Of a stretch of DNA of 64,000 nucleotides, positions 4,958 through 50,904 are shown in pieces. Below the pieces are notes generated by a model. The model was given only the letters and a program-made list of their open reading frames with translations, had not been told where the DNA came from and searched no databases. Each line of letters opens with the position of its first letter. Position 1 is the stretch's first letter. The stretch lies in assembly GCA_009992215.1 (NCBI GenBank), contig JAACWB010000005.1, positions 16,676 through 80,675 on the forward strand, in the 5' to 3' direction. The position numbers and the translations under genes are program-made. The stretch comes from an archaeon. Lineage in GTDB: Archaea; Nanobdellota; Nanobdellia; Pacearchaeales; GW2011-AR1.

Positions 4958-5483
4958 TCTTTTTAATTATATAAATTCCATCTTGAAAGATTCTTTTATC
5001 TCTTCCTCGAATTTTTGTTGCTGCTTCAAATTTTGCAGAACAGTTTCCTGCAAGTTCTTTATTTACAGATTTTACAAAAATCATGTTTTTGTCAATTTCA
5101 ACATCTGTACCGGCAGTTAAATTAACAACTCTATCAACTTTTTCACCAAGGAAATTTTTTATGATTGCTTTGTTTCCTTCTTTCTTTACAGTGAAAGGGA
5201 AGTGTCCAAAACAAATTTTTAATTCATAAACAAATTTTTCTTGTACTCCTTTAATCATGTTTTCAATGTGAGCTGCGATTGTGTTCATTAATTTTTTTTC
5301 AGTTTTAGTTGATTTTTCATTTCCTAAAGTTAATTTGTTTCCAACTAAAGTTGCATTAACTCTACCAAACTTGAATCTTCTAGTAATTTCTCCTTCTTTT
5401 CCTTTTATTGTTAATGTGTCACCTTCTAAGTTAGCACTAACACCTTCGGGAATTTCAATTGTTACGTTTAAATCTTTTTTCAT
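4941..5483 (-). CDS. rpl6: 50S ribosomal protein uL6
   Basis: IEIPEGVSANLEGDTLTIKGKEGEITRRF; synteny S8-L6. Confidence 0.9.
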   Translation of the reverse strand: MKKDLNVTIEIPEGVSANLEGDTLTIKGKEGEITRRFKFGRVNATLVGNKLTLGNEKSTKTEKKLMNTIAAHIENMIKGVQEKFVYELKICFGHFPFTVKKEGNKAIIKNFLGEKVDRVVNLTAGTDVEIDKNMIFVKSVNKELAGNCSAKFEAATKIRGRDKRIFQDGIYIIKKNGKEI

Positions 5484-5484
5484 T

Positions 5485-5865
5485 TTAGTAAAAGTATGCT
5501 ACTAAGCAACCTCCAATTTGTTCTTCTTGTGCTTCTTTATGTGTCATTAAACCTTTGTTTGTTGAAAGAATCACAATACCTAAATTTCTTGCAGGAAGAT
5601 ATCTTCTCCTATATTTTTCAATTTGAGATTTGTCACAACTAAATCTTGGTTTAATTGCTTTACATTCAGTTAAATCTCCGATTGTTATTTCTAAAGTTTT
5701 TTCCTTTGAATCTATTTTATATTTTTTAATTGCTCCTTCTTGCTTCATAATTTTTAATACTTCGATTAACAAATTTGAAATTATTTTTACTTTTACAACT
5801 TCTTTGTTTGCTTTCTTAGCATTTCTTATCATGTTTAGTGCATCAGCAACTATATCGTGTGACAT
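5485..5865 (-). CDS. rps8: 30S ribosomal protein uS8
   Basis: DIVADALNMIRNAKKANKEVV and the C-terminal GGCLVAYFY. Confidence 0.9.
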   Translation of the reverse strand: MSHDIVADALNMIRNAKKANKEVVKVKIISNLLIEVLKIMKQEGAIKKYKIDSKEKTLEITIGDLTECKAIKPRFSCDKSQIEKYRRRYLPARNLGIVILSTNKGLMTHKEAQEEQIGGCLVAYFY

Positions 5866-16268: not shown

Positions 16269-17744
16269 ATGCAATTAAAGATTAAGACATCCGAATGGGC
16301 TGCAGGAATTCCTGTTTCCATGTTGAATCACAAGACAGCACAAAAGTTAGGTGTTCATGCAGGGGACAGAATAACAATTAAAACTATTTCTAAAAATTCT
16401 AAACAAATGACAACAATTGTTGACACTGTTGATAAATTAGTTGGGGCAAACCATATTGCTGTTTCTGAAGAAGTAAAAAAAATATTATCTTTAAGAGAAG
16501 AACAGACTGTGGATGTTTCTTTTATGGATGCTCCTGAAAGTGTTAATTACATAAAGAAAAAATTAGTTGGAGAGGAATTGACTCATGATGAAGTAAAATC
16601 AATTATTGCAGATGTTGTAAATAATACGCTATCCGAACCAGAAGTTAGTGTTTTTGTTTCTGCAATGTATAAAAATGGTATGACTTTCAAAGAAACTGTT
16701 GCTTTAGTTGATGCCATTTTGTCTTCGGGAAAAACACTTTCTTTTAGAAATAAATATGTTGTTGACAAACATTGTATCGGGGGAATTGCTGGAAACAGAA
16801 CTACACCAATAGTTGTTTCAATTTGTGCAGCTGCTGGTCTTACTTTTCCTAAAACTTCTTCAAGGGCAATAACATCTGCTGCTGGAACTGCTGATTGTAT
16901 TGAAGTTTTGAGTCCCGTTGAATTTAGTATGGATGAATTAAAAAAAATAGTCCAAAAAACTGGGGCTTGTCTCACTTGGGGAGGAGCGCTTGGAATGGTT
17001 CCTGCCGATTCAAAAATAATTAAAGTTGAAAAAATGTTAAAGCTTGACCCTGCTGCACAACTTTTGGCTTCAATTATGTCAAAGAAACTCGCTGCTGGAA
17101 GTAAATATATTTTAATTGATATTCCTTATGGAAAAAAAGCAAAGGTTTCTTTAGCGAAAGGAAAAATGCTAAAGAGAAAATTTGAACAATTAGCAAGACA
17201 CTTCAAAGTCAAGATTAAAGTTATTTTGACAAAAGCTACAGAACCAATTGGGAATGGTGTTGGTCCTGCTCTTGAAATCCGTGATGTTATGAATGTTTTA
17301 AATCCAAAAAAAGAAGGACCTCAAGACTTAGAAAAAAAGGCAATTTATTTGGCTTCTGAAATTTTTGAGATGACTATTTCAAAAAAAGGAAAAGGAAAAG
17401 CTTTAGCAAGAGAGATGCTTGAAAGCGGAAAAGCGTGGAAAAAGTTTCAAGAAATAATAAAAGCACAGAATGGAAGAGTGAAAGAAATTATTCCTTCAAA
17501 AATTTCTCATACTGTTTGTTCTCCGAAAAAAGGAAAAATAAAAGATATTGATAATCATTTAATTAATTATCTTGCAAGAGTTGCGGGTTGTCCGATGGAT
17601 AAATATTCAGGAGTTTATTTGCATCACCACATCGGAGACAAAGTTAAACACAATGAACCATTACTTACAATTTATGCTGAATCTAAACCAAGACTTAAGG
17701 AAGCACTAAAGTATTATGAAAATAAAAAACCAATAAGGATTTGA
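16269..17744 (+). CDS. deoA: AMP phosphorylase (archaeal thymidine-phosphorylase-family DeoA)
   Basis: About 490 aa. N-terminal extra domain MQLKIKTSEWAAGIPVSMLNHKTAQKLGVHAGDRITIKT, then VDKHCIGGIAGNRTTPIVV (glycosyl-transferase family 3 core). This is the archaeal AMP phosphorylase architecture. Confidence 0.8.
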   Translation: MQLKIKTSEWAAGIPVSMLNHKTAQKLGVHAGDRITIKTISKNSKQMTTIVDTVDKLVGANHIAVSEEVKKILSLREEQTVDVSFMDAPESVNYIKKKLVGEELTHDEVKSIIADVVNNTLSEPEVSVFVSAMYKNGMTFKETVALVDAILSSGKTLSFRNKYVVDKHCIGGIAGNRTTPIVVSICAAAGLTFPKTSSRAITSAAGTADCIEVLSPVEFSMDELKKIVQKTGACLTWGGALGMVPADSKIIKVEKMLKLDPAAQLLASIMSKKLAAGSKYILIDIPYGKKAKVSLAKGKMLKRKFEQLARHFKVKIKVILTKATEPIGNGVGPALEIRDVMNVLNPKKEGPQDLEKKAIYLASEIFEMTISKKGKGKALAREMLESGKAWKKFQEIIKAQNGRVKEIIPSKISHTVCSPKKGKIKDIDNHLINYLARVAGCPMDKYSGVYLHHHIGDKVKHNEPLLTIYAESKPRLKEALKYYENKKPIRI

Positions 17745-18543: not shown

Positions 18544-18623
18544 GCCTCCATCGCATAGTGGTATTGCACCGGACTTGAGATCCGGGCCCTTTGGGCTCGC
18601 AGGTTCGATTCCTGCTGGGGGCG
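18544..18623 (+). tRNA. tRNA-Ser (anticodon TGA), class II with long variable arm, no encoded CCA
   Basis: Hand fold: acceptor GCCTCCA/TGGGGGC, D arm GCA-TAGTGGTAT-TGC, anticodon arm CCGGA-CTTGAGA-TCCGG, variable arm GCCCTTTGGGCTC, T arm GCAGG-TTCGATT-CCTGC, discriminator G. Confidence 0.85.
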
Positions 18624-18737
18624 CTAAAAGAAGGGTTCTTCGGAGCCCTTTTTTTATTTTATTTTCTTTTAGCTTTCCACTGGTCCTCGCTTCGCTGTGG
18701 TTTCTCATATTTTTCAAATATTCCAAAAGGGGGCGCT
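18617..18737 (+). repeat. Direct repeat GGGGGCGCT (tRNA-Ser 3' end) at 18617-18625 and 18729-18737
   Basis: Exact 9-mer copies 112 nt apart, each followed by a UUCG-capped hairpin and a T tract. Confidence 0.9.
18631..18657 (+). terminator. Hairpin plus T tract after tRNA-Ser
   Basis: AAGGGTTC-TTCG-GAGCCCTT followed by TTTTTTT. Confidence 0.6.
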
Positions 18738-18741
18738 GAAT

Positions 18742-18770
18742 AAGGAACTCTTCGGAGTTCCTTTTTCTTT
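18742..18770 (+). terminator. Second UUCG hairpin plus T tract after the duplicated tRNA-Ser 3' end
   Basis: AAGGAACTC-TTCG-GAGTTCCTT followed by a T-rich run. Confidence 0.55.
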
Positions 18771-18809
18771 TTACTTAAAACTTAAAAATATCTTATTCAT
18801 AATTATAGG

Positions 18810-25533: not shown

Positions 25534-25930
25534 ACAAGTCAAGGAGCTAACTTTCGAGAGTCTGGCATTAAATTGTCGAGTGTTTGAAATGTGAACATTG
25601 ATTCTTGAGGAAGGTCCGCGCACCCCGAGTTTCCGTTATGGACTCTTAGGACAAAATCATCGAGGAAATCTCGAGCGTTGTGAAGCGCAGCTCTGGTACA
25701 GAAACGACACAGCTCATTTGGAGTTATGACTCTTGCGATGAACGGCGAAGAATGAGATTTGATGAAACGAGCATCTTGATTGGTGCAAGGGTAACAGTTA
25801 GTTTATAGTAAGTGATTGTTAGTTTTTAGCAAACACAGAAAAAATTAATGAAGTACGCCCGCTTAGTTGGATGTTAGCACATTTGGTCTGAATACAGCAA
25901 ATGACAGAACGTGGCCTAACCTTGACTTGT
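25534..25930 (+). ncRNA. rnpB: Structured ncRNA, probably RNase P RNA (core about 25543-25882; maximal span closed by an 11-bp terminal helix)
   Basis: ORF-free and visibly GC-richer than its flanks. CR-I-like GAGGAAGGTCCGCGCACCCC at about 25607-25626; GGTACAGAAACG; GGTGCAAGGGTAACAG; CR-V-like ACAGAA...CCCGCTTAG at about 25825-25865. AGCTAAC (25545-25551) pairs with GTTAGC (25873-25878). ACAAGTCAAGG (25534-25544) pairs with CCTTGACTTGT (25920-25930). I could not recover a clean P4 pairing by eye. Confidence 0.5.
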
Positions 25931-26037
25931 ATTTCTTTTCCACGTTCTTACAAAACGACCGGCAAATCAGGGATTTACCCATCGGACATAAAAGCTCACT
26001 TCATTCGGTTTCATGTCAGTGGACTACCTTGACTTGT
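25920..26037 (+). repeat. Direct repeat CCTTGACTTGT at 25920-25930 and 26027-26037; inverted copy at 25534-25544
   Basis: Exact 11-mers 107 nt apart. Extended similarity GGCCTAACCTTGACTTGT versus GGACTACCTTGACTTGT. Confidence 0.9.
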
Positions 26038-26047
26038 TTATTTTTAA

Positions 26048-26426: not shown

Positions 26427-26498
26427 TGGGAAGAGAGGGAGTCGAACCCTCGACTCCATGATCTTCAGTCATGTGCTCTCCCGCTGAGCTACCTTCCC
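26427..26498 (-). tRNA. tRNA-Phe (anticodon GAA)
   Basis: Minus strand: GGGAAGG-TA-GCTC-AGCGGGAGA-GAGC-A-CATGA-CTGAAGA-TCATG-GAGTC-GAGGG-TTCGACT-CCCTC-TCTTCCC-A. Confidence 0.9.
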
Positions 26499-28887: not shown

Positions 28888-30372
28888 ATGAAAAAATATC
28901 CTAAACAAATTCAGGAAATGTATGATTCTTTAAATGAAAAACAGCGAAGATATACAAATTTGGAATTAGCTAATCCAAAGAATGGAGAATATATGCTTGC
29001 AGTTTATCACCTTATTCCAGGTGGAGATTTAAACATGTTACAAGCCGCTGCTGAAGTTGCTGCTGAATCTTCTACGGGTACAAATTTTACAGTAAAAACT
29101 GAAACTGATTTTTCACATGAGATGAATGCCTTAACTTACAAAGTTGATTTGAAAAATAATTTAGTTTGGATGGCTTTTCCTTGGAGACTTTTTGATAGAG
29201 GAGGAAATATCCAAAATATTTTAACATATATCGTTGGAAATGTCCTTGGAATGAAAGAAATTAATGCATTAAAACTTCTTGATCTTTGGTTTCCACCTTC
29301 AATGCTTGAACAATATGATGGGCCAAGTTATACGCTTGAAGATATGAAAAAATATCTTGGAATATCAAAGAAGAAAGATAGACCTGTACTTGGAACAATT
29401 ATTAAACCAAAAATGGGATTAACGTCTTCAGAATATGCAGAAGTATGTTATGACTTTTGGAAAGGCGGAGGAGATTTTGTAAAAAATGATGAGCCTCAAG
29501 CTAATCAAGATTTTTGCCCTTATGACAAAATGGTCAAATATGTAAAAGAAGCAATGGACAAAGCCGTTAAAGAAACAGGGAACAAAAAAGTTCACTCATT
29601 TAATGTTTCGGCTTCTGATTATGATACTATGATTGAAAGATGTGAGATGATTCGTGCTGCCGGATTTGAACCTGGAAGTTATGCATTTTTAATTGATGGA
29701 CTTACTGCTGGATGGATGGCAGTTCAAACTCTAAGACGTAAATATCCTGATGTGTTTATTCATTTTCATAGAGCAATGCATGGTGCATTTACTCGTCCTG
29801 AAAATCCAATTGGATTTAGTGTTTTAATTCTTTCAAAGTTTGCAAGACTTGCAGGAGTAAGTGGTATTCATACAGGAACTGCAGGGGTTGGAAAAATGAA
29901 AGGAAATGCAAACGATGATATAATTCCCGCACATAATATTTTGTCTCTTATCGGAGAGGGATATTTCTTTGAACAATCATGGGCAAGAGTACCAAAAACT
30001 GACAAAGATGTTATACGATTAGCAAAGGAAGACCATCTTCACCACGTGATTTTGAGTGATGATTCATGGAGAGGAATGAAAAAGTGTGCGCCTATAATTT
30101 CTGGTGGCCTTAATCCAACTAAATTAAAGCCGTTTATTGATTTGATGAAGAGTACTGACTTTATTACTACAATGGGTGCTGGAGTTCATGCTCATCCTGA
30201 TGGTACTCAAGCTGGTGCAAAAGCATTAGTTCAAGCGATGGAAGCATATAACAAAAATATTTCCATAGATGTTTATGCAAAGACACATCCTGAACTAAAA
30301 AAGGCGATTGAATTTTTTACAAAACCAAAGAAAGAAGTTAAAGCGGAAGAATCTGTTGAGAAAGCAGCTTGA
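28888..30372 (+). CDS. rbcL: RuBisCO large subunit, form II/III-like
   Basis: GTIIKPKMGL; GGGDFVKNDEPQANQDFCP (form II-type KNDE, carbamyl-Lys and metal ligands intact); HFHRAMHGA; SGIHTGTAGVGKMKG. Confidence 0.9.
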   Translation: MKKYPKQIQEMYDSLNEKQRRYTNLELANPKNGEYMLAVYHLIPGGDLNMLQAAAEVAAESSTGTNFTVKTETDFSHEMNALTYKVDLKNNLVWMAFPWRLFDRGGNIQNILTYIVGNVLGMKEINALKLLDLWFPPSMLEQYDGPSYTLEDMKKYLGISKKKDRPVLGTIIKPKMGLTSSEYAEVCYDFWKGGGDFVKNDEPQANQDFCPYDKMVKYVKEAMDKAVKETGNKKVHSFNVSASDYDTMIERCEMIRAAGFEPGSYAFLIDGLTAGWMAVQTLRRKYPDVFIHFHRAMHGAFTRPENPIGFSVLILSKFARLAGVSGIHTGTAGVGKMKGNANDDIIPAHNILSLIGEGYFFEQSWARVPKTDKDVIRLAKEDHLHHVILSDDSWRGMKKCAPIISGGLNPTKLKPFIDLMKSTDFITTMGAGVHAHPDGTQAGAKALVQAMEAYNKNISIDVYAKTHPELKKAIEFFTKPKKEVKAEESVEKAA

Positions 30373-30858: not shown

Positions 30859-31101
30859 ATGACAGAACAGATTAATTTGAGGCTTTCAGATGAAATTATT
30901 TCAAGAGCGAAAAAATTCGCAGAGAAAAATGGTTTTAGTAATATTCAGGAACTCATTAAAGAAACCCTAAGAGAAAAATTATTTGAGAAAGAAAATATTG
31001 GGGGAATTTTTACCTATTCTGCCTCTGAAAAGTCACTTTCAAAATATTGGATGACTAAAGAGGAGGACAGTGCATGGAATCATTTGCAAAAGGAGATGTA
31101 G
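30859..31101 (+). CDS. Putative antitoxin (small, ribbon-helix-helix-like) of the MazF pair
   Basis: 80 aa, overlaps the toxin ORF by 28 nt. N-terminus INLRLSDEIISRAKKFAEKNG is RHH-like. Confidence 0.5.
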   Translation: MTEQINLRLSDEIISRAKKFAEKNGFSNIQELIKETLREKLFEKENIGGIFTYSASEKSLSKYWMTKEEDSAWNHLQKEM

Positions 31102-31412
31102 TCTTGTTTCCTTTTCCATTTACAAACTTAACAAATAGAAAATTAAGGCCTTCACTTGTTTTATCTGACGAAATGGATGAAGACATTATTTTATGTCAAA
31201 TAACTTCAAAATATACCCGAAAAGATAAATTCTCAATTTTACTTAATAAAAATGAAACATTAAATGGGAGTTTGATGATTGACAGCCTTATTAGAACTAA
31301 TATGTTATTTACTGCTTCAAAAAATCAAATTGTAAAAAAAGTCTGTAAACTTGACAAAGATAAATATAACTTGGTTGTTGAGAAGATTTATCAAATAATC
31401 AAAGTTCTTTGA
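31074..31412 (+). CDS. mazF: PemK/MazF family toxin (mRNA interferase)
   Basis: GDVVLFPFPFTNLTNRKLRPSLVLSDE...IILCQITSK matches the PemK N-terminal SH3-like core. Confidence 0.75.
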   Translation: MESFAKGDVVLFPFPFTNLTNRKLRPSLVLSDEMDEDIILCQITSKYTRKDKFSILLNKNETLNGSLMIDSLIRTNMLFTASKNQIVKKVCKLDKDKYNLVVEKIYQIIKVL

Positions 31413-49147: not shown

Positions 49148-49212
49148 TATCAAAAGAAAAACTCTCTATATATAAAGGTTATTGGATTAGAAATTATTCT
49201 CATTTTTTAATT

Positions 49213-49336
49213 AATAAAAAAGAAAATGAAACGCTCAAATTTCTTTCTTTGAAATTTGGCAAAAACAAGCTTAGACTTCGCTTAAATCTTGTTTTGACGA
49301 CTTGTCGTCTTTTAATGAATAAAAAAGAAAATGAAA
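49213..49336 (-). repeat. Direct repeat AATAAAAAAGAAAATGAAA at 49213-49231 and 49318-49336 (5S trailer)
   Basis: Exact 19-mers 105 nt apart. Extends to 27 nt with one mismatch when the flanks are included. Confidence 0.9.
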
Positions 49337-49446
49337 GACGACTTGAACAGTTCGCGTCTTGCGGGACACTACCATGGACAACGTAGGAAGCTTAACTTCT
49401 GTGTTCGGAAAGGGAACAGGTGTTTCCAACCTACTATGGCCGTCTT
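49335..49446 (-). rRNA. rrf: 5S ribosomal RNA
   Basis: Minus strand: AAGACGGCCATAGTAGGTTGGAAACACCTGTTCCCTTTCCGAACACAGAAGTTAAGCTTCCTACGTTGTCCATGGTAGTGTCCCGCAAGACGCGAACTGTTCAAGTCGTCTT. Contains the CCGAAC...GAAGTTAAGC core, and the ends pair (helix I). Confidence 0.85.
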
Positions 49447-49466
49447 CAAATTTAGAGAAGCAATTG

Positions 49467-49509: not shown

Positions 49510-49592
49510 GCAGGAGTGCCAGAGTGGTCAAATGGGCTAGATTAAGGATCTAGTGGTGTATTCCTACGCAGGTTCGAATCCTGTCTCTTGCA
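49510..49592 (+). tRNA. tRNA-Leu, anticodon read as AAG (class II)
   Basis: GCAGGAG-TG-CCAG-AGTGGTCAA-ATGG-G-CTAGA-TTAAGGA-TCTAG-(14-nt variable)-GCAGG-TTCGAAT-CCTGT-CTCTTGC-A. Confidence 0.8.
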
Positions 49593-49667
49593 TTATTTGT
49601 CTGGGTAACTCGGCTCGCAAGCTTAATTGCAGTTAAGTTACTCTAGACAATGAAAGCAATTAAACAT

Positions 49668-49743
49668 GCCTGGGTAACTCAGTCTGGATTAGAGTGCCAC
49701 CCTCCTAAGGTGGAAGTCGCAGGTTCAAATCCTGCCTCGGGCG
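49668..49743 (+). tRNA. tRNA-Arg (anticodon CCT)
   Basis: GCCTGGG-TA-ACTC-AGTCTGGATTA-GAGT-G-CCACC-CTCCTAA-GGTGG-AAGTC-GCAGG-TTCAAAT-CCTGC-CTCGGGC-G. Confidence 0.9.
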
Positions 49744-49850
49744 TTTTAATTTGAACCAAGACGTCGCAGGCTAACAACTTTGAAATTTTAATAAATGAAT
49801 ATAATGAATTTAAGAAATTTCACAAGTTGATAGTAAAATCCTGCCTCGGG
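49727..49850 (+). repeat. Direct repeat AAATCCTGCCTCGGG (tRNA-Arg 3' end) at 49727-49741 and 49836-49850
   Basis: Exact 15-mers 109 nt apart. Confidence 0.9.
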
Positions 49851-49854
49851 AGTT

Positions 49855-50328
49855 TTATGCTATAAAGGTTAAGATTATTGCAACATAAAAAAGAGTTATC
49901 AGCTGTGTTGTTATAAAATATTTTGCTGAAATTTCATAATTATTCTTTAATTTGAAAGTTACATAAATAAAAATTATCCATTCTAAAAATAATACATGAA
50001 AATAAATAAAAAATTGATTAAAAAAAGTTATTGCAAGTGTTCTAACTCCTGCGATAATAACAAAAGACAAAACCATGTTGAATAAAAATATAGAAAAATA
50101 TTCTTTTCTTCTTTCTATTGCCCCAATTCTAATTTTTCTTGTTAATTTTTTTGAAAATTCTGAAAAGACAAAACCAAAACTAAGCCCAATAAACCAAGAG
50201 ATATATGGCTTAATATATGTAAAAATTGTCTCGAAGATGTTAAAATAATATAACTCAAAAAAAGTTATAATTCCCATTAAAAAAAATAAAGAAAATTCCA
50301 ATAAAAAGAAATTTTTCTTTTCACTCAT
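49855..50328 (-). CDS. Hypothetical polytopic membrane protein (157 aa)
   Basis: Four to five hydrophobic segments; no motif recognised. Confidence 0.4.
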   Translation of the reverse strand: MSEKKNFFLLEFSLFFLMGIITFFELYYFNIFETIFTYIKPYISWFIGLSFGFVFSEFSKKLTRKIRIGAIERRKEYFSIFLFNMVLSFVIIAGVRTLAITFFNQFFIYFHVLFLEWIIFIYVTFKLKNNYEISAKYFITTQLITLFYVAIILTFIA

Positions 50329-50411: not shown

Positions 50412-50482
50412 GCGTGGATAGTTCAGTGGCAGAATCTCTGGCTTCCAACCAGATGACCTGGGTTCGAATCCCAGTCCGCGCA
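50412..50482 (+). tRNA. tRNA-Gly (anticodon TCC)
   Basis: GCGTGGA-TA-GTTC-AGTGGCA-GAAT-C-TCTGG-CTTCCAA-CCAGA-TGAC-CTGGG-TTCGAAT-CCCAG-TCCGCGC-A. Confidence 0.9.
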
Positions 50483-50609
50483 TATTCTTACTGGTCTTCG
50501 AACGAGACGTCATATTTTGGGTCGATTGGAAAACGACTCATCCAAAATATTCCATCAAGCCAATTATTCTTTCAGAAAAATCGACTTATCCCAAGTCCGC
50601 GCATATTCT
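50473..50609 (+). repeat. Direct repeat AGTCCGCGCATATTCT (tRNA-Gly 3' end plus 6 nt of trailer) at 50473-50488 and 50594-50609
   Basis: Exact 16-mers 121 nt apart. Confidence 0.9.
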
Positions 50610-50643
50610 AAATTTTTATTAATCTAAACTAGTTCTTGTAATA

Positions 50644-50904
50644 ATGAAAGAGAAAATTTCTAAAACTGAAGCAAAAGAGAAGATTAAAGAATTTTTTGAT
50701 AAAATTAAATCAAAGAGTCCAAAAGAAGTTTTGAAAATAAAAAAATTATCCATGAAAAATAGAATTCCATTGGGTATAAATAAAAAACTTTTTTGTTCTG
50801 ATTGCTTTGAACCCTACTTGGGAAATGAAAAAATTAGAATAACCAAAGGATTCAAAACAGTTACTTGTGAAAAATGTGGAAAAGTTAAAAAAATTAAATT
50901 ATAA
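50644..50904 (+). CDS. rnp4: RNase P protein component 4 (Rpp21/Rpr2-like)
   Basis: Helical Lys-rich N-terminus, then zinc ribbon FCSDCFEPYLGNEKIRITKGFKTVTCEKCGKVKKI. Confidence 0.65.
   Translation: MKEKISKTEAKEKIKEFFDKIKSKSPKEVLKIKKLSMKNRIPLGINKKLFCSDCFEPYLGNEKIRITKGFKTVTCEKCGKVKKIKL

Follow-up and report, generated by a model that had tools for sequence, protein, structure and literature searches.

The direct repeat at the 3' end of a tRNA-Gly gene in this archaeon is genuine, and the same scar is common beside stable-RNA genes in this group of tiny archaea. In the window (here, the whole 64,000-nt stretch of DNA analysed), the 16-mer AGTCCGCGCATATTCT, comprising 10 nt of tRNA-Gly and 6 nt of trailer, is present at 50473-50488 and again at 50594-50609, i.e., 121 nt start to start, exactly as reported in a preliminary description, and repeats of this kind seldom arise in shuffled sequence. 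The two contexts, CCCAGTCC and CCCAAGTCC, are one extra A apart; with one indel allowed the repeat lengthens to 21-22 nt, and the block is thereby extended to ATCCCA(A)GTCCGCGCATATTCT, whose proximal copy includes the last 10-15 nt of the tRNA gene. Reckoned from the exact 16-mers, the intervening insert spans 105 nt (50489-50593) and contains no ORF. The locus is organized as follows:

50412-50482, plus strand: tRNA-Gly(TCC), complete and intron-less (ARAGORN; Rfam RF00005, 69.1 bits)
50468-50488, plus strand: proximal block ATCCCAGTCCGCGCATATTCT, from T-loop A59 to the 3' end plus 6 nt of trailer (repeat search, chance test)
50489-50588, plus strand: insert of ~100 nt (sequence, fold)
50589-50610, plus strand: distal block ATCCCAAGTCCGCGCATATTCT, a displaced pseudo-3' end (repeat search, chance test)
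50644-50904, plus strand: downstream gene for an 86-aa Zn-ribbon protein (ORF)

The gene-proximal end of the insert is a T-arm-like segment, CTGGTCTTCGAAC, with a small hairpin; its centre forms a hairpin with 9-bp and 4-bp stems (50513-50551), and its distal part is a degenerate T-arm remnant. The 105-nt insert and the 9-bp/4-bp hairpin had both been described earlier, and the latter is present in the MFE fold; its portrayal as a notable long structure did not hold up, as the fold is no better than those of shuffles (z -0.1 to -0.3, the lowest value being -0.33). In the distal block, the extra A disrupts the T-stem. Beyond the block come a T/A-rich stretch and what is presumably the promoter of the downstream gene; the putative TATA-like sequence, AAATTTTTATTAATC, lies immediately 3' of the block. 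The Zn-ribbon protein encoded there has no match in Pfam or NCBIfam; its gene has an ortholog 3' of the tRNA cluster in a relative (L030), and its CxxC...CxxC pattern suggests that it is possibly the RNase P protein Rpp21. No second copy of the Gly insert was recovered in the 64-kb window by blastn-short, blastn or a covariance model, and it belongs to no detected family; blastn-short and blastn likewise returned no further copies of the Gly and tRNA-Ser inserts in the window or in 80 related loci. By inspection of the sequences, the Gly insert looks orthologous to inserts in two relatives (L006 and L002).

The repeat is not an assembly artefact, because eight same-species contigs from other samples (Logan, JGI, ENA) that reach the Gly locus match the window exactly wherever they overlap it. 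Four of the eight cover tRNA-Gly and the entire insert, and four contigs terminate within the insert, at about 50500. Samples in which the species occurs include SRR29616066 and JGI 3300007986, 3300008085, 3300004210 and 3300025158. In the whole window, exact direct repeats of 16 nt or longer with a spacing of 20-200 nt number only two, namely the Gly 16-mer and a 19-mer after the 5S rRNA gene, both at stable-RNA gene 3' ends; block-wise dinucleotide shuffles yield a mean of 0.17 such repeats, with 10% of shuffles having any. A chance origin is rejected.

Could the distal copy be the true 3' exon of an intron-containing or split tRNA, the archaeal splicing endonuclease excising the 121 nt that separate the two copies? 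The insert positions (T-loop, D-loop) coincide with those of known non-canonical introns, which would favour such splicing. So would the broad-specificity splicing endonucleases reported for DPANN archaea (PMC3239211). Yet the upstream tRNA-Gly is already complete, the distal copies would disrupt T-stem or acceptor pairing, no hBHBh' motif was found at the junctions in a scan of six test transcripts, and the tandem arrays seen in relatives would be senseless as introns. With the complete upstream gene, the disabled distal copies and the negative motif scan, a BHB intron or split tRNA is largely refuted, and we consider it highly improbable.

Counterparts at other stable-RNA genes of the window

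The repeats likewise reported at tRNA-Ser, tRNA-Arg, 5S rRNA and RNase P RNA are real, with periods of 112, 109, 105 and 107 nt, respectively, as compared with 121 nt at tRNA-Gly:

49727-49857, plus strand: tRNA-Arg(CCT) scar, with blocks AAATCCTGCCTCGGG(C/A)GTTTTA at 49727-49748 and 49836-49857 (repeat search)
49594-49680, plus strand: 5'-end version at tRNA-Arg, in the Leu-Arg spacer (sequence, fold)
49197-49336, minus strand: 5S rRNA scar, the gene lying at 49333-49447, minus strand (Rfam, repeat search, chance test)
25919-26045, plus strand: RNase P RNA scar (repeat search, Rfam)
18608-18776, plus strand: tRNA-Ser(TGA) scar, the gene lying at 18544-18623 (repeat search, fold)

The 87-nt Arg insert ('family C') opens with ATTTGAACC, the T-loop in antisense, after which comes a T-stem strand in sense orientation, GTCGCAGG; its fold has a z of -3.1, and the distal copy carries a C72 to A change. 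Homologs occur in L006 (76% over 112 nt) and L051 (87% over 53 nt), so that this insert is 76-87% identical across genomes whose SecF proteins are 67-73% identical. In the adjacent Leu-Arg spacer, a sense copy, GTCTGGGTAACTC (49600), and an antisense copy, AGTTACTCTAGAC, form a 13-bp hairpin upstream of the real tRNA-Arg 5' end, GCCTGGGTAACTC (49668), with a fold z of -5.6, and analogous 5' duplications occur in relatives, including L006. The 5S block is 19 nt exact, consisting of the last 4 nt of 5S and a T-rich trailer, and recurs 105 nt downstream, extending to 35 nt at 89%. Its insert (fold z -3.9) starts with AAAAGACGAC-AA-GTCGTC, an antisense and then a sense copy of the 5S 3' end. Set against 27 relatives with a 5S gene, this scar is restricted to the window, and the empty site is seen in L002, L030 and L067. 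The RNase P RNA gene was located by a match to Rfam RF00373 at 25571-25930 (83.6 bits, E 2e-23) that narrowly misses the gathering score of 84, and the 5' strand of P1 probably starts at 25535. Its block, ACCTTGACTTGT plus a T-rich trailer, has a second copy 107 nt downstream, and at the start of the insert stands CCACGTTC, the antisense counterpart of GAACGTGG in the gene itself. Finally, the tRNA-Ser repeat, ATTCC....GGGGGCGCT, has a period of 112, and both copies are followed by a terminator-like hairpin and a T-run, the hairpin stems carrying compensatory differences.

No pairwise similarity among the five window inserts was significant by local alignment, and their being one sequence family is not supported; the earlier proposal of a ~100-nt family at stable-RNA ends survives as a lineage-wide class of scars (see below). 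Homology of the Ser and Gly inserts had been put forward on three motifs shared in the same order. This chain reaches p ~0.001-0.003 against shuffles, or up to 0.03 with the harshest gap cost, but it is equalled or bettered in 0.4-5% of comparisons with real window segments, and the proposed homology is borderline and suggestive only. The inserts have no match in Rfam 15: a scan at gathering scores gave nothing for them, and E-value scans, run on the window region and on L038, produced weak chance matches only. We also rejected several other identities. Inserts derived from a decayed whole-gene tandem duplicate are contradicted by their dissimilarity to the tRNA body (4/39 at p<0.05) and by periods shorter than the 5S and RNase P genes; by inspection, C/D or H/ACA boxes do not occur in the right order, and GAUGAG variants resembling a hammerhead core have no GAAA after stem II.

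Survey of related loci and insert family A1

Of 149 tRNAs drawn from the window and from 80 related loci of Pacearchaeota/Woesearchaeota type, 42 are followed by a copy of their own 3' portion, as against 1/149 in the upstream control. All 27 copies of the last 19 nt of a tRNA lie downstream on the gene strand, 26-375 nt distant; the one copy listed as opposite-strand belongs to a neighbouring tRNA-Leu. The blocks begin 19-20 nt before the tRNA 3' end, in the T-loop, and stop just past the gene, mostly 0-2 nt beyond it (median length 20 nt, mean 19.7 nt, median trailer included 2 nt), and the tRNA and trailer parts of a block are weakly correlated in a ruler test (rho -0.25, p 0.22). The inserts of this class, tied to stable-RNA 3' ends, are ~50-110 nt long. 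The 105-121 nt spacing singled out previously is particular to this genome and its nearest relative; across relatives the spacing runs from about 45 to 146 nt.

Orthologous empty sites are available for tRNA-Arg, tRNA-Gly and 5S, and uphold the logic of a target-site duplication: the extra DNA was inserted, and the block was duplicated with it. Most orthologous tRNAs carry no insert at all. The distal copies are degenerate, as in the extra A at Gly, the C72 to A change at Arg and the Gly copy of L006. The junction on the gene-proximal side varies from scar to scar and contains 2-11 nt of filler. In L051 the arrangement is serial, the newer insert adjoining the gene, and the unit is amplified into tandem arrays in L030, L041, L053 and L059. 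L041 has two identical proximal copies and a divergent distal one, and in L006 the distal copy agrees with the other tRNA-Gly allele. N-runs are present at scars in L002 and L059. In 20/152 tRNAs the 45 nt that follow the gene contain an antisense T-loop 7-mer (upstream, 4/152), which covaries weakly with the host T-loop (p 0.05).

One group of these inserts, A1, has spread across tRNA kinds. A single 45-nt core, inserted exactly between T55 and C56, adjoins at least seven kinds on different contigs (Thr, Val, Lys, Leu(TAA), Gly, Arg and an unidentified intron-containing tRNA). Its distal junction reads ...GACCCA|C56 in every locus with a mappable proximal copy, and the duplication is 19 or 21 nt in eight of these ten loci. 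Each A1 locus duplicates the end of its own tRNA; therefore, the block originates in the target and not in the element. A covariance model of family A (R1) detects 22 matches in 14 of the 80 relatives, including tandem arrays, and none in the window at E <=1; by this measure the window inserts fall outside family A. The idea that A1 flanks are fitted to each host T-arm was rejected, since the difference between the own T-arm (8.8 matches of 11) and others (8.1) was not significant, and only a weak A57/G57 covariation with the host is seen (p 0.05).

The structure and conservation of certain inserts might point to selection on the trailer itself, such that insert and second terminator would be co-transcribed and kept, whether as an sRNA made by read-through, as an aid to processing or termination, or as a spacer for a promoter; the duplicated 3' end would then serve as a decoy or second terminator. 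The Ser hairpins do stay paired via compensatory changes, with a T-run in both copies; the window, L006 and L002 all seem to have kept the Gly insert, whose two hairpins match in position and differ in sequence; the Arg insert is conserved at 76-87% across distant genomes; and in the predicted read-through RNA, pairing is possible between the 5' acceptor strand and the distal copy (z -3.1). Streamlined genomes rarely retain junk DNA, which also speaks for a retained function. These points have to be weighed against the lack of an insert at most orthologous tRNAs, the unrelatedness of inserts at different genes of one genome, the disabling changes accumulating in distal copies and the absence of an Rfam family match, and we regard selection as an improbable account.

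Proposed origin of the scars

We tentatively favour, at a little under an even chance, the view that the Gly repeat records the entry of a small piece of DNA at the gene 3' end, made in a transposition-like manner through staggered breaks, with modules mobilized in trans. Under this proposal, ~100 bp of foreign or newly made DNA would have entered tRNA-Gly at the T-loop, and the ~20-bp block that begins in the T-loop and stops a few bases beyond the gene would have been duplicated on either side of it. The upstream copy would rebuild an intact tRNA because the block extends to the gene end, and the downstream copy would become a displaced, decaying pseudo-3' end, still with its original T-rich trailer and directly adjoining the presumed promoter of the gene that follows. 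The duplication might result from gap filling after two strand breaks staggered by ~19-22 bp and anchored on the T-arm palindrome or, in 5S and RNase P RNA, on the terminal helix. The inserts would be short non-autonomous modules moved in trans, and fold-back DNA synthesis at the gene-proximal junction could leave the inverted target micro-copies found there.

In favour of insertion, the events are non-random, end-specific and directional, and the same architecture recurs at 5S and RNase P RNA with target-specific inverted micro-copies. The block geometry, the filled and empty orthologous sites, the spread of A1 and its covariance matches in relatives, the degenerate distal copies and the serial and tandem units count in its favour too. 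Such micro-copies are, on the other hand, unexpected from plain transposition; the gene-proximal junction is variable, the weak correlation (rho -0.25, p 0.22) does not establish a fixed-length ruler, and the Gly insert is single-copy in the window. Pfam identified none of the 63 window ORFs as an integrase, a transposase, Cas1, a reverse transcriptase or a homing endonuclease, at a cut-off that also missed the HNH genes of relatives and that small homing endonucleases could escape. The long-distance conservation of some inserts, such as that at Arg, could instead mean function.

The inverted-then-sense micro-copies at proximal insert ends, target-specific at 5S and RNase P RNA, would be accommodated by break repair without any mobile element. 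Here a nick or double-strand break in the T-arm palindrome or terminal helix of a stable-RNA gene under heavy transcription, with template switching and snap-back synthesis, would give a partial duplication and a filler of direct and inverted flank copies; a homing endonuclease or a replication-transcription conflict might cause the break. The downstream excess of the antisense T-loop 7-mer (20/152 versus 4/152) with its weak covariation (p 0.05), the strong hairpins of several inserts (z -3.1 to -5.6) and the mutual unrelatedness of the window inserts fit such repair. It also has a precedent in SegB, where T-loop cleavage is followed by tandem amplification (PMC13096335), and relatives have HNH and LAGLIDADG genes within this very tRNA cluster. 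De novo filler cannot, however, explain a near-identical A1 core at no fewer than seven tRNA kinds with a base-exact junction, and the Gly insert is not unusually structured (z -0.33). An HNH homing endonuclease as the general cause was discarded: the relatives' gene (phrog_3106, E 2e-24) is restricted to the Arg-Gly spacer in every context examined, loci with intact copies lack the duplication, and neither Pfam, which missed the relatives' HNH, nor phmmer with the relatives' HNH finds one in the window. We judge repair of this kind to be rather unlikely.

A more specific form of the insertion proposal, which we hold to be possible although doubtful, is that Pacearchaeota-like DPANN archaea host undescribed miniature modules devoid of terminal inverted repeats (TIRs) at stable-RNA ends, where the T-loop, the D-loop and, in 5S and RNase P RNA, the terminal helix would be safe places to land. 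A trans-acting ruler-type integrase, Cas1-like or other, would rebuild the gene through the ~20-bp duplication, and the arrays would be a natural analogue of the leader-repeat-spacer unit.

Comparison with known systems

No description of a scar class adjoining stable-RNA genes was found in the literature searched. One close precedent is provided by elements integrated in tRNA genes, which leave one complete and one partial tRNA copy; the repeat begins in a loop, frequently the T-loop, and reaches the 3' end, and the gene remains functional (PMC9897764; PMC3293823); in integrase-type elements, 44-bp repeats surround elements of 9-23 kb (PMC9897764). The inserts might accordingly be remnants or tiny att-flanked derivatives of tyrosine-recombinase elements whose attP, bearing the segment from T-loop to 3' end, was integrated, and which were then mostly deleted or mobilized in trans. 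The loop-to-end repeats, ending 0-2 nt past the gene like att identity blocks, the complete-plus-partial outcome that is classic for integration (PMC9897764), and the identical proximal and divergent distal copies of L041 and the allele match of L006 would all suit this. But proviruses, plasmids and genomic islands with tyrosine integrases measure 2-120 kb, encode the integrase and bring the repeat themselves as attP, whereas these inserts are 50-110 nt, contain no ORF, duplicate target-derived sequence and also hit 5S and RNase P RNA. Among ~100 loci no kb-scale element lies between the repeats, all spacings being 26-375 nt; no integrase was seen in the window; and A1, next to many tRNA kinds each with its own end, would need a fresh attP every time. 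A virus-borne attP as the source was dismissed, the A1 core having no match in the viral contig collection. Excision of circles of 70-120 bp is also physically implausible. An integrase origin is not supported, and we deem it very improbable.

The geometry proposed for insertion resembles casposon or Cas1-type integration beside tRNA genes. The casposase depends on the T-psi-C loop and produces a 15-bp target-site duplication (TSD) that overlaps the 3' end of tRNA-Pro (PMC5137440), and casposons and CRISPR spacer integration share with the scars, as we propose them to have arisen, a staggered integration, a long duplication at a tRNA 3' end, a T-psi-C-loop palindrome in the target and the topology of gene ('leader'), repeat, insert and repeat (PMC5137440). 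Casposons differ in their 15-bp TSD with 5 bp of tRNA overlap, their TIRs, their multi-kb size and their Cas1 and PolB; here, the block is ~20 bp and mostly inside the gene, the A1 junction is exact at T55|C56, no TIRs were evident on inspection, and no Cas1 was detected in the window. SegB of phages T4/T6, a free-standing homing endonuclease that serves as a further precedent for the insertion proposal, cuts the tRNA T-loop motif RAWTSGAAC and drives tandem segmental amplification (PMC13096335). It is a phage GIY-YIG enzyme whose recombination-dependent 718-bp unit comprises a whole tRNA and segB, as opposed to units of ~70-146 nt with a 3' fragment only in these archaea, where the relatives' HNH gene sits in one spacer, unlinked to the scars.

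The scars share with MITEs a small, non-coding nature, target duplications, multiple copies (A1, across contigs) and, as we propose, mobilization in trans; of the Gly insert, one copy was found in the 64 kb. A MITE is bounded by terminal inverted repeats, its TSD is only 2-10 bp long, and targeting precise to a single base within an RNA gene is rare for it. In contrast, visual inspection revealed no TIRs at the ends of the Gly, Arg and A1 inserts, the duplication is ~20 bp (19 or 21 nt in A1), and the gene-proximal junction is ragged. Intron transposition in Thermoproteales has placed related short sequences at the same loop position of different tRNAs. Such non-canonical archaeal introns interrupt a functional gene and are BHB-spliced, while here the gene is uninterrupted and no BHB is found. 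[quoted passage not shown] Altogether, with no Rfam match, no BHB intron, no integrase in the window and no TIRs by eye, the initial impression that the inserts match no described MITE, intron or att class is upheld.

Scars of this type can mislead tRNA annotation in DPANN genomes, and their pseudo-3' ends and tandem arrays break metagenome assemblies, as in the N-runs of L002 and L059 and the four contigs ending in the Gly insert. They also mark places where stable-RNA transcripts may read through into structured trailers. If they do reflect target-duplicating mini-elements, they would represent a new way for selfish DNA to inhabit essential RNA genes without killing them, and would offer a compact natural system for long-ruler integration beside tRNA genes, with a geometry like that of casposons and CRISPR adaptation.

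Duplicated ends of the stable-RNA genes in the window

The window (GC ~29%), which derives from a DPANN-type archaeon, encodes a ribosomal-protein operon, SecD/SecF, RNA polymerase subunits N and D, L21e and a form III RuBisCO, together with seven stable-RNA genes:

18544-18623, +, tRNA-Ser
~25535-25931, +, RNase P RNA (RF00373, 83.6 bits, E 2e-23)
26427-26498, -, tRNA-Phe
49333-49447, -, 5S rRNA
49510-49592, +, tRNA-Leu
49668-49743, +, tRNA-Arg
50412-50482, +, tRNA-Gly

The archaeal RNase P RNA scores 0.4 bits below the gathering cut-off of RF00373 and is therefore missed by a default Rfam scan; its P1 helix (ACAAGTCAAGG / CCTTGACTTGT) suggests that the gene begins ~36 nt before the Rfam match. 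Among the protein-coding genes, the form III RuBisCO large subunit (28888-30372, +) lies ~11 kb from an AMP-phosphorylase-like protein (Glycos_trans_3N / PYNP_C; 16269-17744, +), both being components of the archaeal nucleotide-salvage pathway. Just 3' of a NUDIX gene is a type II toxin-antitoxin pair (30859-31412, +), in which a small antitoxin-like ORF (DUF6364, score under the Pfam cut-off) overlaps a MazF/PemK toxin gene.

End duplications touch six of the seven stable-RNA genes, with tRNA-Leu counted via a tRNA-Arg 5' copy in its downstream spacer and tRNA-Phe the sole exception. In these, a block (the duplicated gene end) occurs as a proximal copy completing the gene and a displaced distal copy, separated by an insert; the period is the start-to-start distance. 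For tRNA-Gly, AGTCCGCGCATATTCT, comprising the last 10 nt of the gene and 6 nt of trailer, is found again 121 nt downstream, with coordinates and sequences exactly as in the preliminary description; allowing one extra A, the block becomes ATCCCA(A)GTCCGCGCATATTCT and extends from A59 of the T-loop to +6. The 64 kb contain just two exact direct repeats that reach 16 nt and are spaced 20-200 nt apart, namely this one and a 19-mer just past the 5S gene (mean of 0.17 expected from block-wise dinucleotide shuffles). The companion repeats cited earlier at other stable-RNA genes, listed here together with that of tRNA-Gly, are equally real:

18608/18720, tRNA-Ser repeat, period 112
25919/26026, RNase P RNA repeat, period 107
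49197/49302, 5S repeat, period 105
49727/49836, tRNA-Arg repeat, period 109
50470/50591, tRNA-Gly repeat, period 121

These periods are tight (105-121 nt) despite five unrelated inserts; they are ~100-118 nt in the relative L006 and ~45 to 146 nt across relatives. The first 13 nt of tRNA-Arg are also copied in the Leu-Arg spacer (49594-49680, +), forming with an antisense copy a very stable hairpin (fold z -5.6), and this structure is the 5'-end counterpart of the 3' scars. A similar structure is seen at tRNA-Leu of L006, with a 23-nt 5' block ~110 nt upstream.

Eight same-species contigs from independent assemblies cover the Gly locus and are identical to the window where they overlap it, four of them spanning tRNA-Gly and the whole insert. 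Four of the eight assemblies (L082, L085, L086, L088) stop within 5 nt of each other (~50500-50505), inside the insert and right after a T-arm-like segment, a possible sign of a heterogeneous population or of a repeat at this position. The "long hairpin" originally attributed to this insert has a central hairpin as its real part, but the fold of the insert as a whole is no more stable than that of shuffled sequences (z -0.1 to -0.3). The proposal of an element family at stable-RNA 3' ends was right in kind but wrong in detail as regards the hairpin and homology among the window inserts; pairwise local alignment of the five finds no similarity (all p>0.1). The chain of three motifs shared by the Ser and Gly inserts is significant against shuffles (p ~0.001-0.003; <=0.03 at the harshest gap cost), but real window segments equal or beat it in 0.4-5% of cases, leaving a borderline sequence similarity.

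End duplications and empty sites in relatives

A SecF query recovered 80 syntenic loci from Pacearchaeota/Woesearchaeota/Nanoarchaeota MAGs (55-74% amino-acid identity), most with the Leu-Arg-Gly tRNA cluster. With neighbouring tRNAs masked and direct copies scored within 300 nt (score 13 or more), 42 of 149 tRNAs have their own 3' part copied downstream as against 1/149 upstream; 5'-end copies upstream are seen for 7 tRNAs (control: 2). The last 19 nt of a tRNA recur in 27 cases, always 26-375 nt downstream and on the same strand as the gene, the one copy listed as opposite-strand belonging to a neighbouring tRNA-Leu; at these spacings no repeat pair encloses a kb-scale element. The block starts 19-20 nt from the tRNA 3' end, in the T-loop, and has a median length of 20 nt (mean 19.7, sd 4.0), to which the trailer contributes 2 nt (median). 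A fixed-length ruler is at most a candidate: most blocks stop 0-2 nt past the gene, and their tRNA and trailer parts correlate only weakly. The median period is 93.5 nt (IQR 76-110).

The logic of target-site duplication, raised in the preliminary description, is borne out by abundant empty orthologous sites at tRNA-Arg, tRNA-Gly and 5S. Empty tRNA-Arg sites have ~40 nt downstream holding the tRNA-Gly promoter, and in most relatives the next gene lies directly 3' of tRNA-Gly. The 5S duplication is present in the window and in none of the 27 relatives compared; in three of these (L002, L030, L067) the 5S trailer is undisturbed and continues as far as the conserved SecF promoter. Many distal copies are defective, with an extra A in the T-stem (window Gly), C72 -> A (window Arg) or the acceptor strand of the other allele (L006 Gly). 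The Gly inserts of the window, L006 and L002 each have two hairpins of different sequence at matching positions, and they share a degenerate remnant of a T-arm ahead of the distal block. From these features they look orthologous, in which case the insertion event would be old.

Tandem arrays of insert plus block occur in L030, L041, L053, L059 and L089. N runs (scaffold gaps) are found in insert arrays 3' of tRNA-Gly and tRNA-Leu (L002 ~5080-5180, L059 6145-6245), and such arrays evidently break or collapse assemblies.

Insert families and endonuclease genes

There are multiple insert sequence families, of which the best defined, A1, was surveyed by a metagenome scan with its core, yielding 13 loci. 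In all loci whose contig includes the upstream sequence, the core is found just 3' of a complete tRNA: Thr, Val, Lys, Leu(TAA), Gly, an unidentified intron-containing tRNA, or Arg (L038). The layout is constant, with the tRNA followed by 2-11 nt of filler, a T-arm-like antisense/sense hairpin, the 45-nt core (TCGTTCG-loop-CGGACGA CGGAGAGCRAAGCGACCCA) and a copy of the host's own tRNA that begins at C56 and stops 1-3 nt beyond the gene. All loci with a mappable proximal copy share the distal junction ...GACCCA/C56, and in 8 of these 10 the block measures 19 or 21 nt. As each A1 locus repeats the end of its own tRNA, the block derives from the target. An A1 covariance model gives 22 matches, in 14/80 relatives, and zero in the window. 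The window Arg insert belongs to another family (C), with homologues among the inserts of L006 (76% over 112 nt) and of L051 (87% over 53 nt).

Two types of endonuclease genes occur at these loci:

L036 5527-5886, HNH gene, intact
L030 5050-5403, -, HNH gene, intact
L102 1501-1830, HNH gene
L006 ~4990-5600, shown on - strand, LAGLIDADG-type gene, apparently interrupted
L106 447-1100, LAGLIDADG-type gene
L107 71-724, LAGLIDADG-type gene

Some relatives carry the LAGLIDADG-type gene in the interval from SecF to 5S. The phage-type HNH gene (phrog_3106, E 2e-24; 109-119 aa) occupies the tRNA-Arg/tRNA-Gly spacer of many Pacearchaeota, and all four clusters checked among the 105 homolog clusters of its family are in this spacer next to SecF. 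Its intact and decayed copies (remnants in L019, L045, L051) look like a homing-endonuclease cycle of gain and decay. We rejected it as the general cause of the duplications because it is confined to one spacer in the contexts checked and because L102, inspected over its full locus, has the gene without a tRNA-end duplication beside it; in our reading it is a selfish gene specific to this locus.

Origin of the duplications

Introns or split tRNAs were rejected, as the gene is complete, distal copies are defective and the junctions have no hBHBh' motif; so was a decayed whole-gene duplicate, the inserts being unlike the tRNA body. No insert matches a known Rfam family. Integrase-type integration is likewise rejected: there is no cargo, no integrase in the window and no match to the A1 core in viral sequences, and one core is found at many tRNAs. 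The comparisons establish insertion with a target-derived duplication, anchored at the T-loop, or at the terminal helix for 5S and RNase P RNA; the upstream copy restores the gene, and the downstream copy is left as a stranded pseudo-end.

We propose that a transposition-like integration would make strand breaks ~20 bp apart, whose fill-in would yield the duplication. The closest precedent is the casposase, which requires the T-psi-C loop and makes a duplication overlapping the tRNA-Pro 3' end (PMC5137440), although of 15 bp rather than the ~20 bp here. At the gene-proximal junction, which is ragged, micro-copies of the target appear first inverted and then in sense orientation, including target-specific ones at 5S (AAAAGACGAC-AA-GTCGTC) and RNase P (CCACGTTC); the distal junction, by contrast, is clean. 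The pattern suggests fold-back synthesis, which may have accompanied closure of the proximal side. Micro-copies of this kind also fit the main rival explanation, a pure break-repair origin with no element, which has a precedent in SegB, an enzyme that cuts at a motif in the T-loop and induces tandem amplification (PMC13096335).

It is also possible that selection retains the insert or trailer for a function. Bacterial-style terminator motifs (hairpin plus T-run) follow both tRNA-Ser copies (18626-18655 and 18738-18767, +), and their stems, GGGTTC-TTCG-GAGCCC and GGAACTC-TTCG-GAGTTCC, stay paired through compensatory differences. Conservation of the Arg insert is unusually high, and in read-through RNA the 5' acceptor strand is predicted to pair with the distal copy (z -3.1).

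A literature search returned as analogues only large elements, the casposon, SegB and introns, and did not find the end-insert pattern itself. The duplication of stable-RNA ends is thus apparently undescribed so far, and the tRNA-Gly repeat is a real instance of this lineage-wide pattern.
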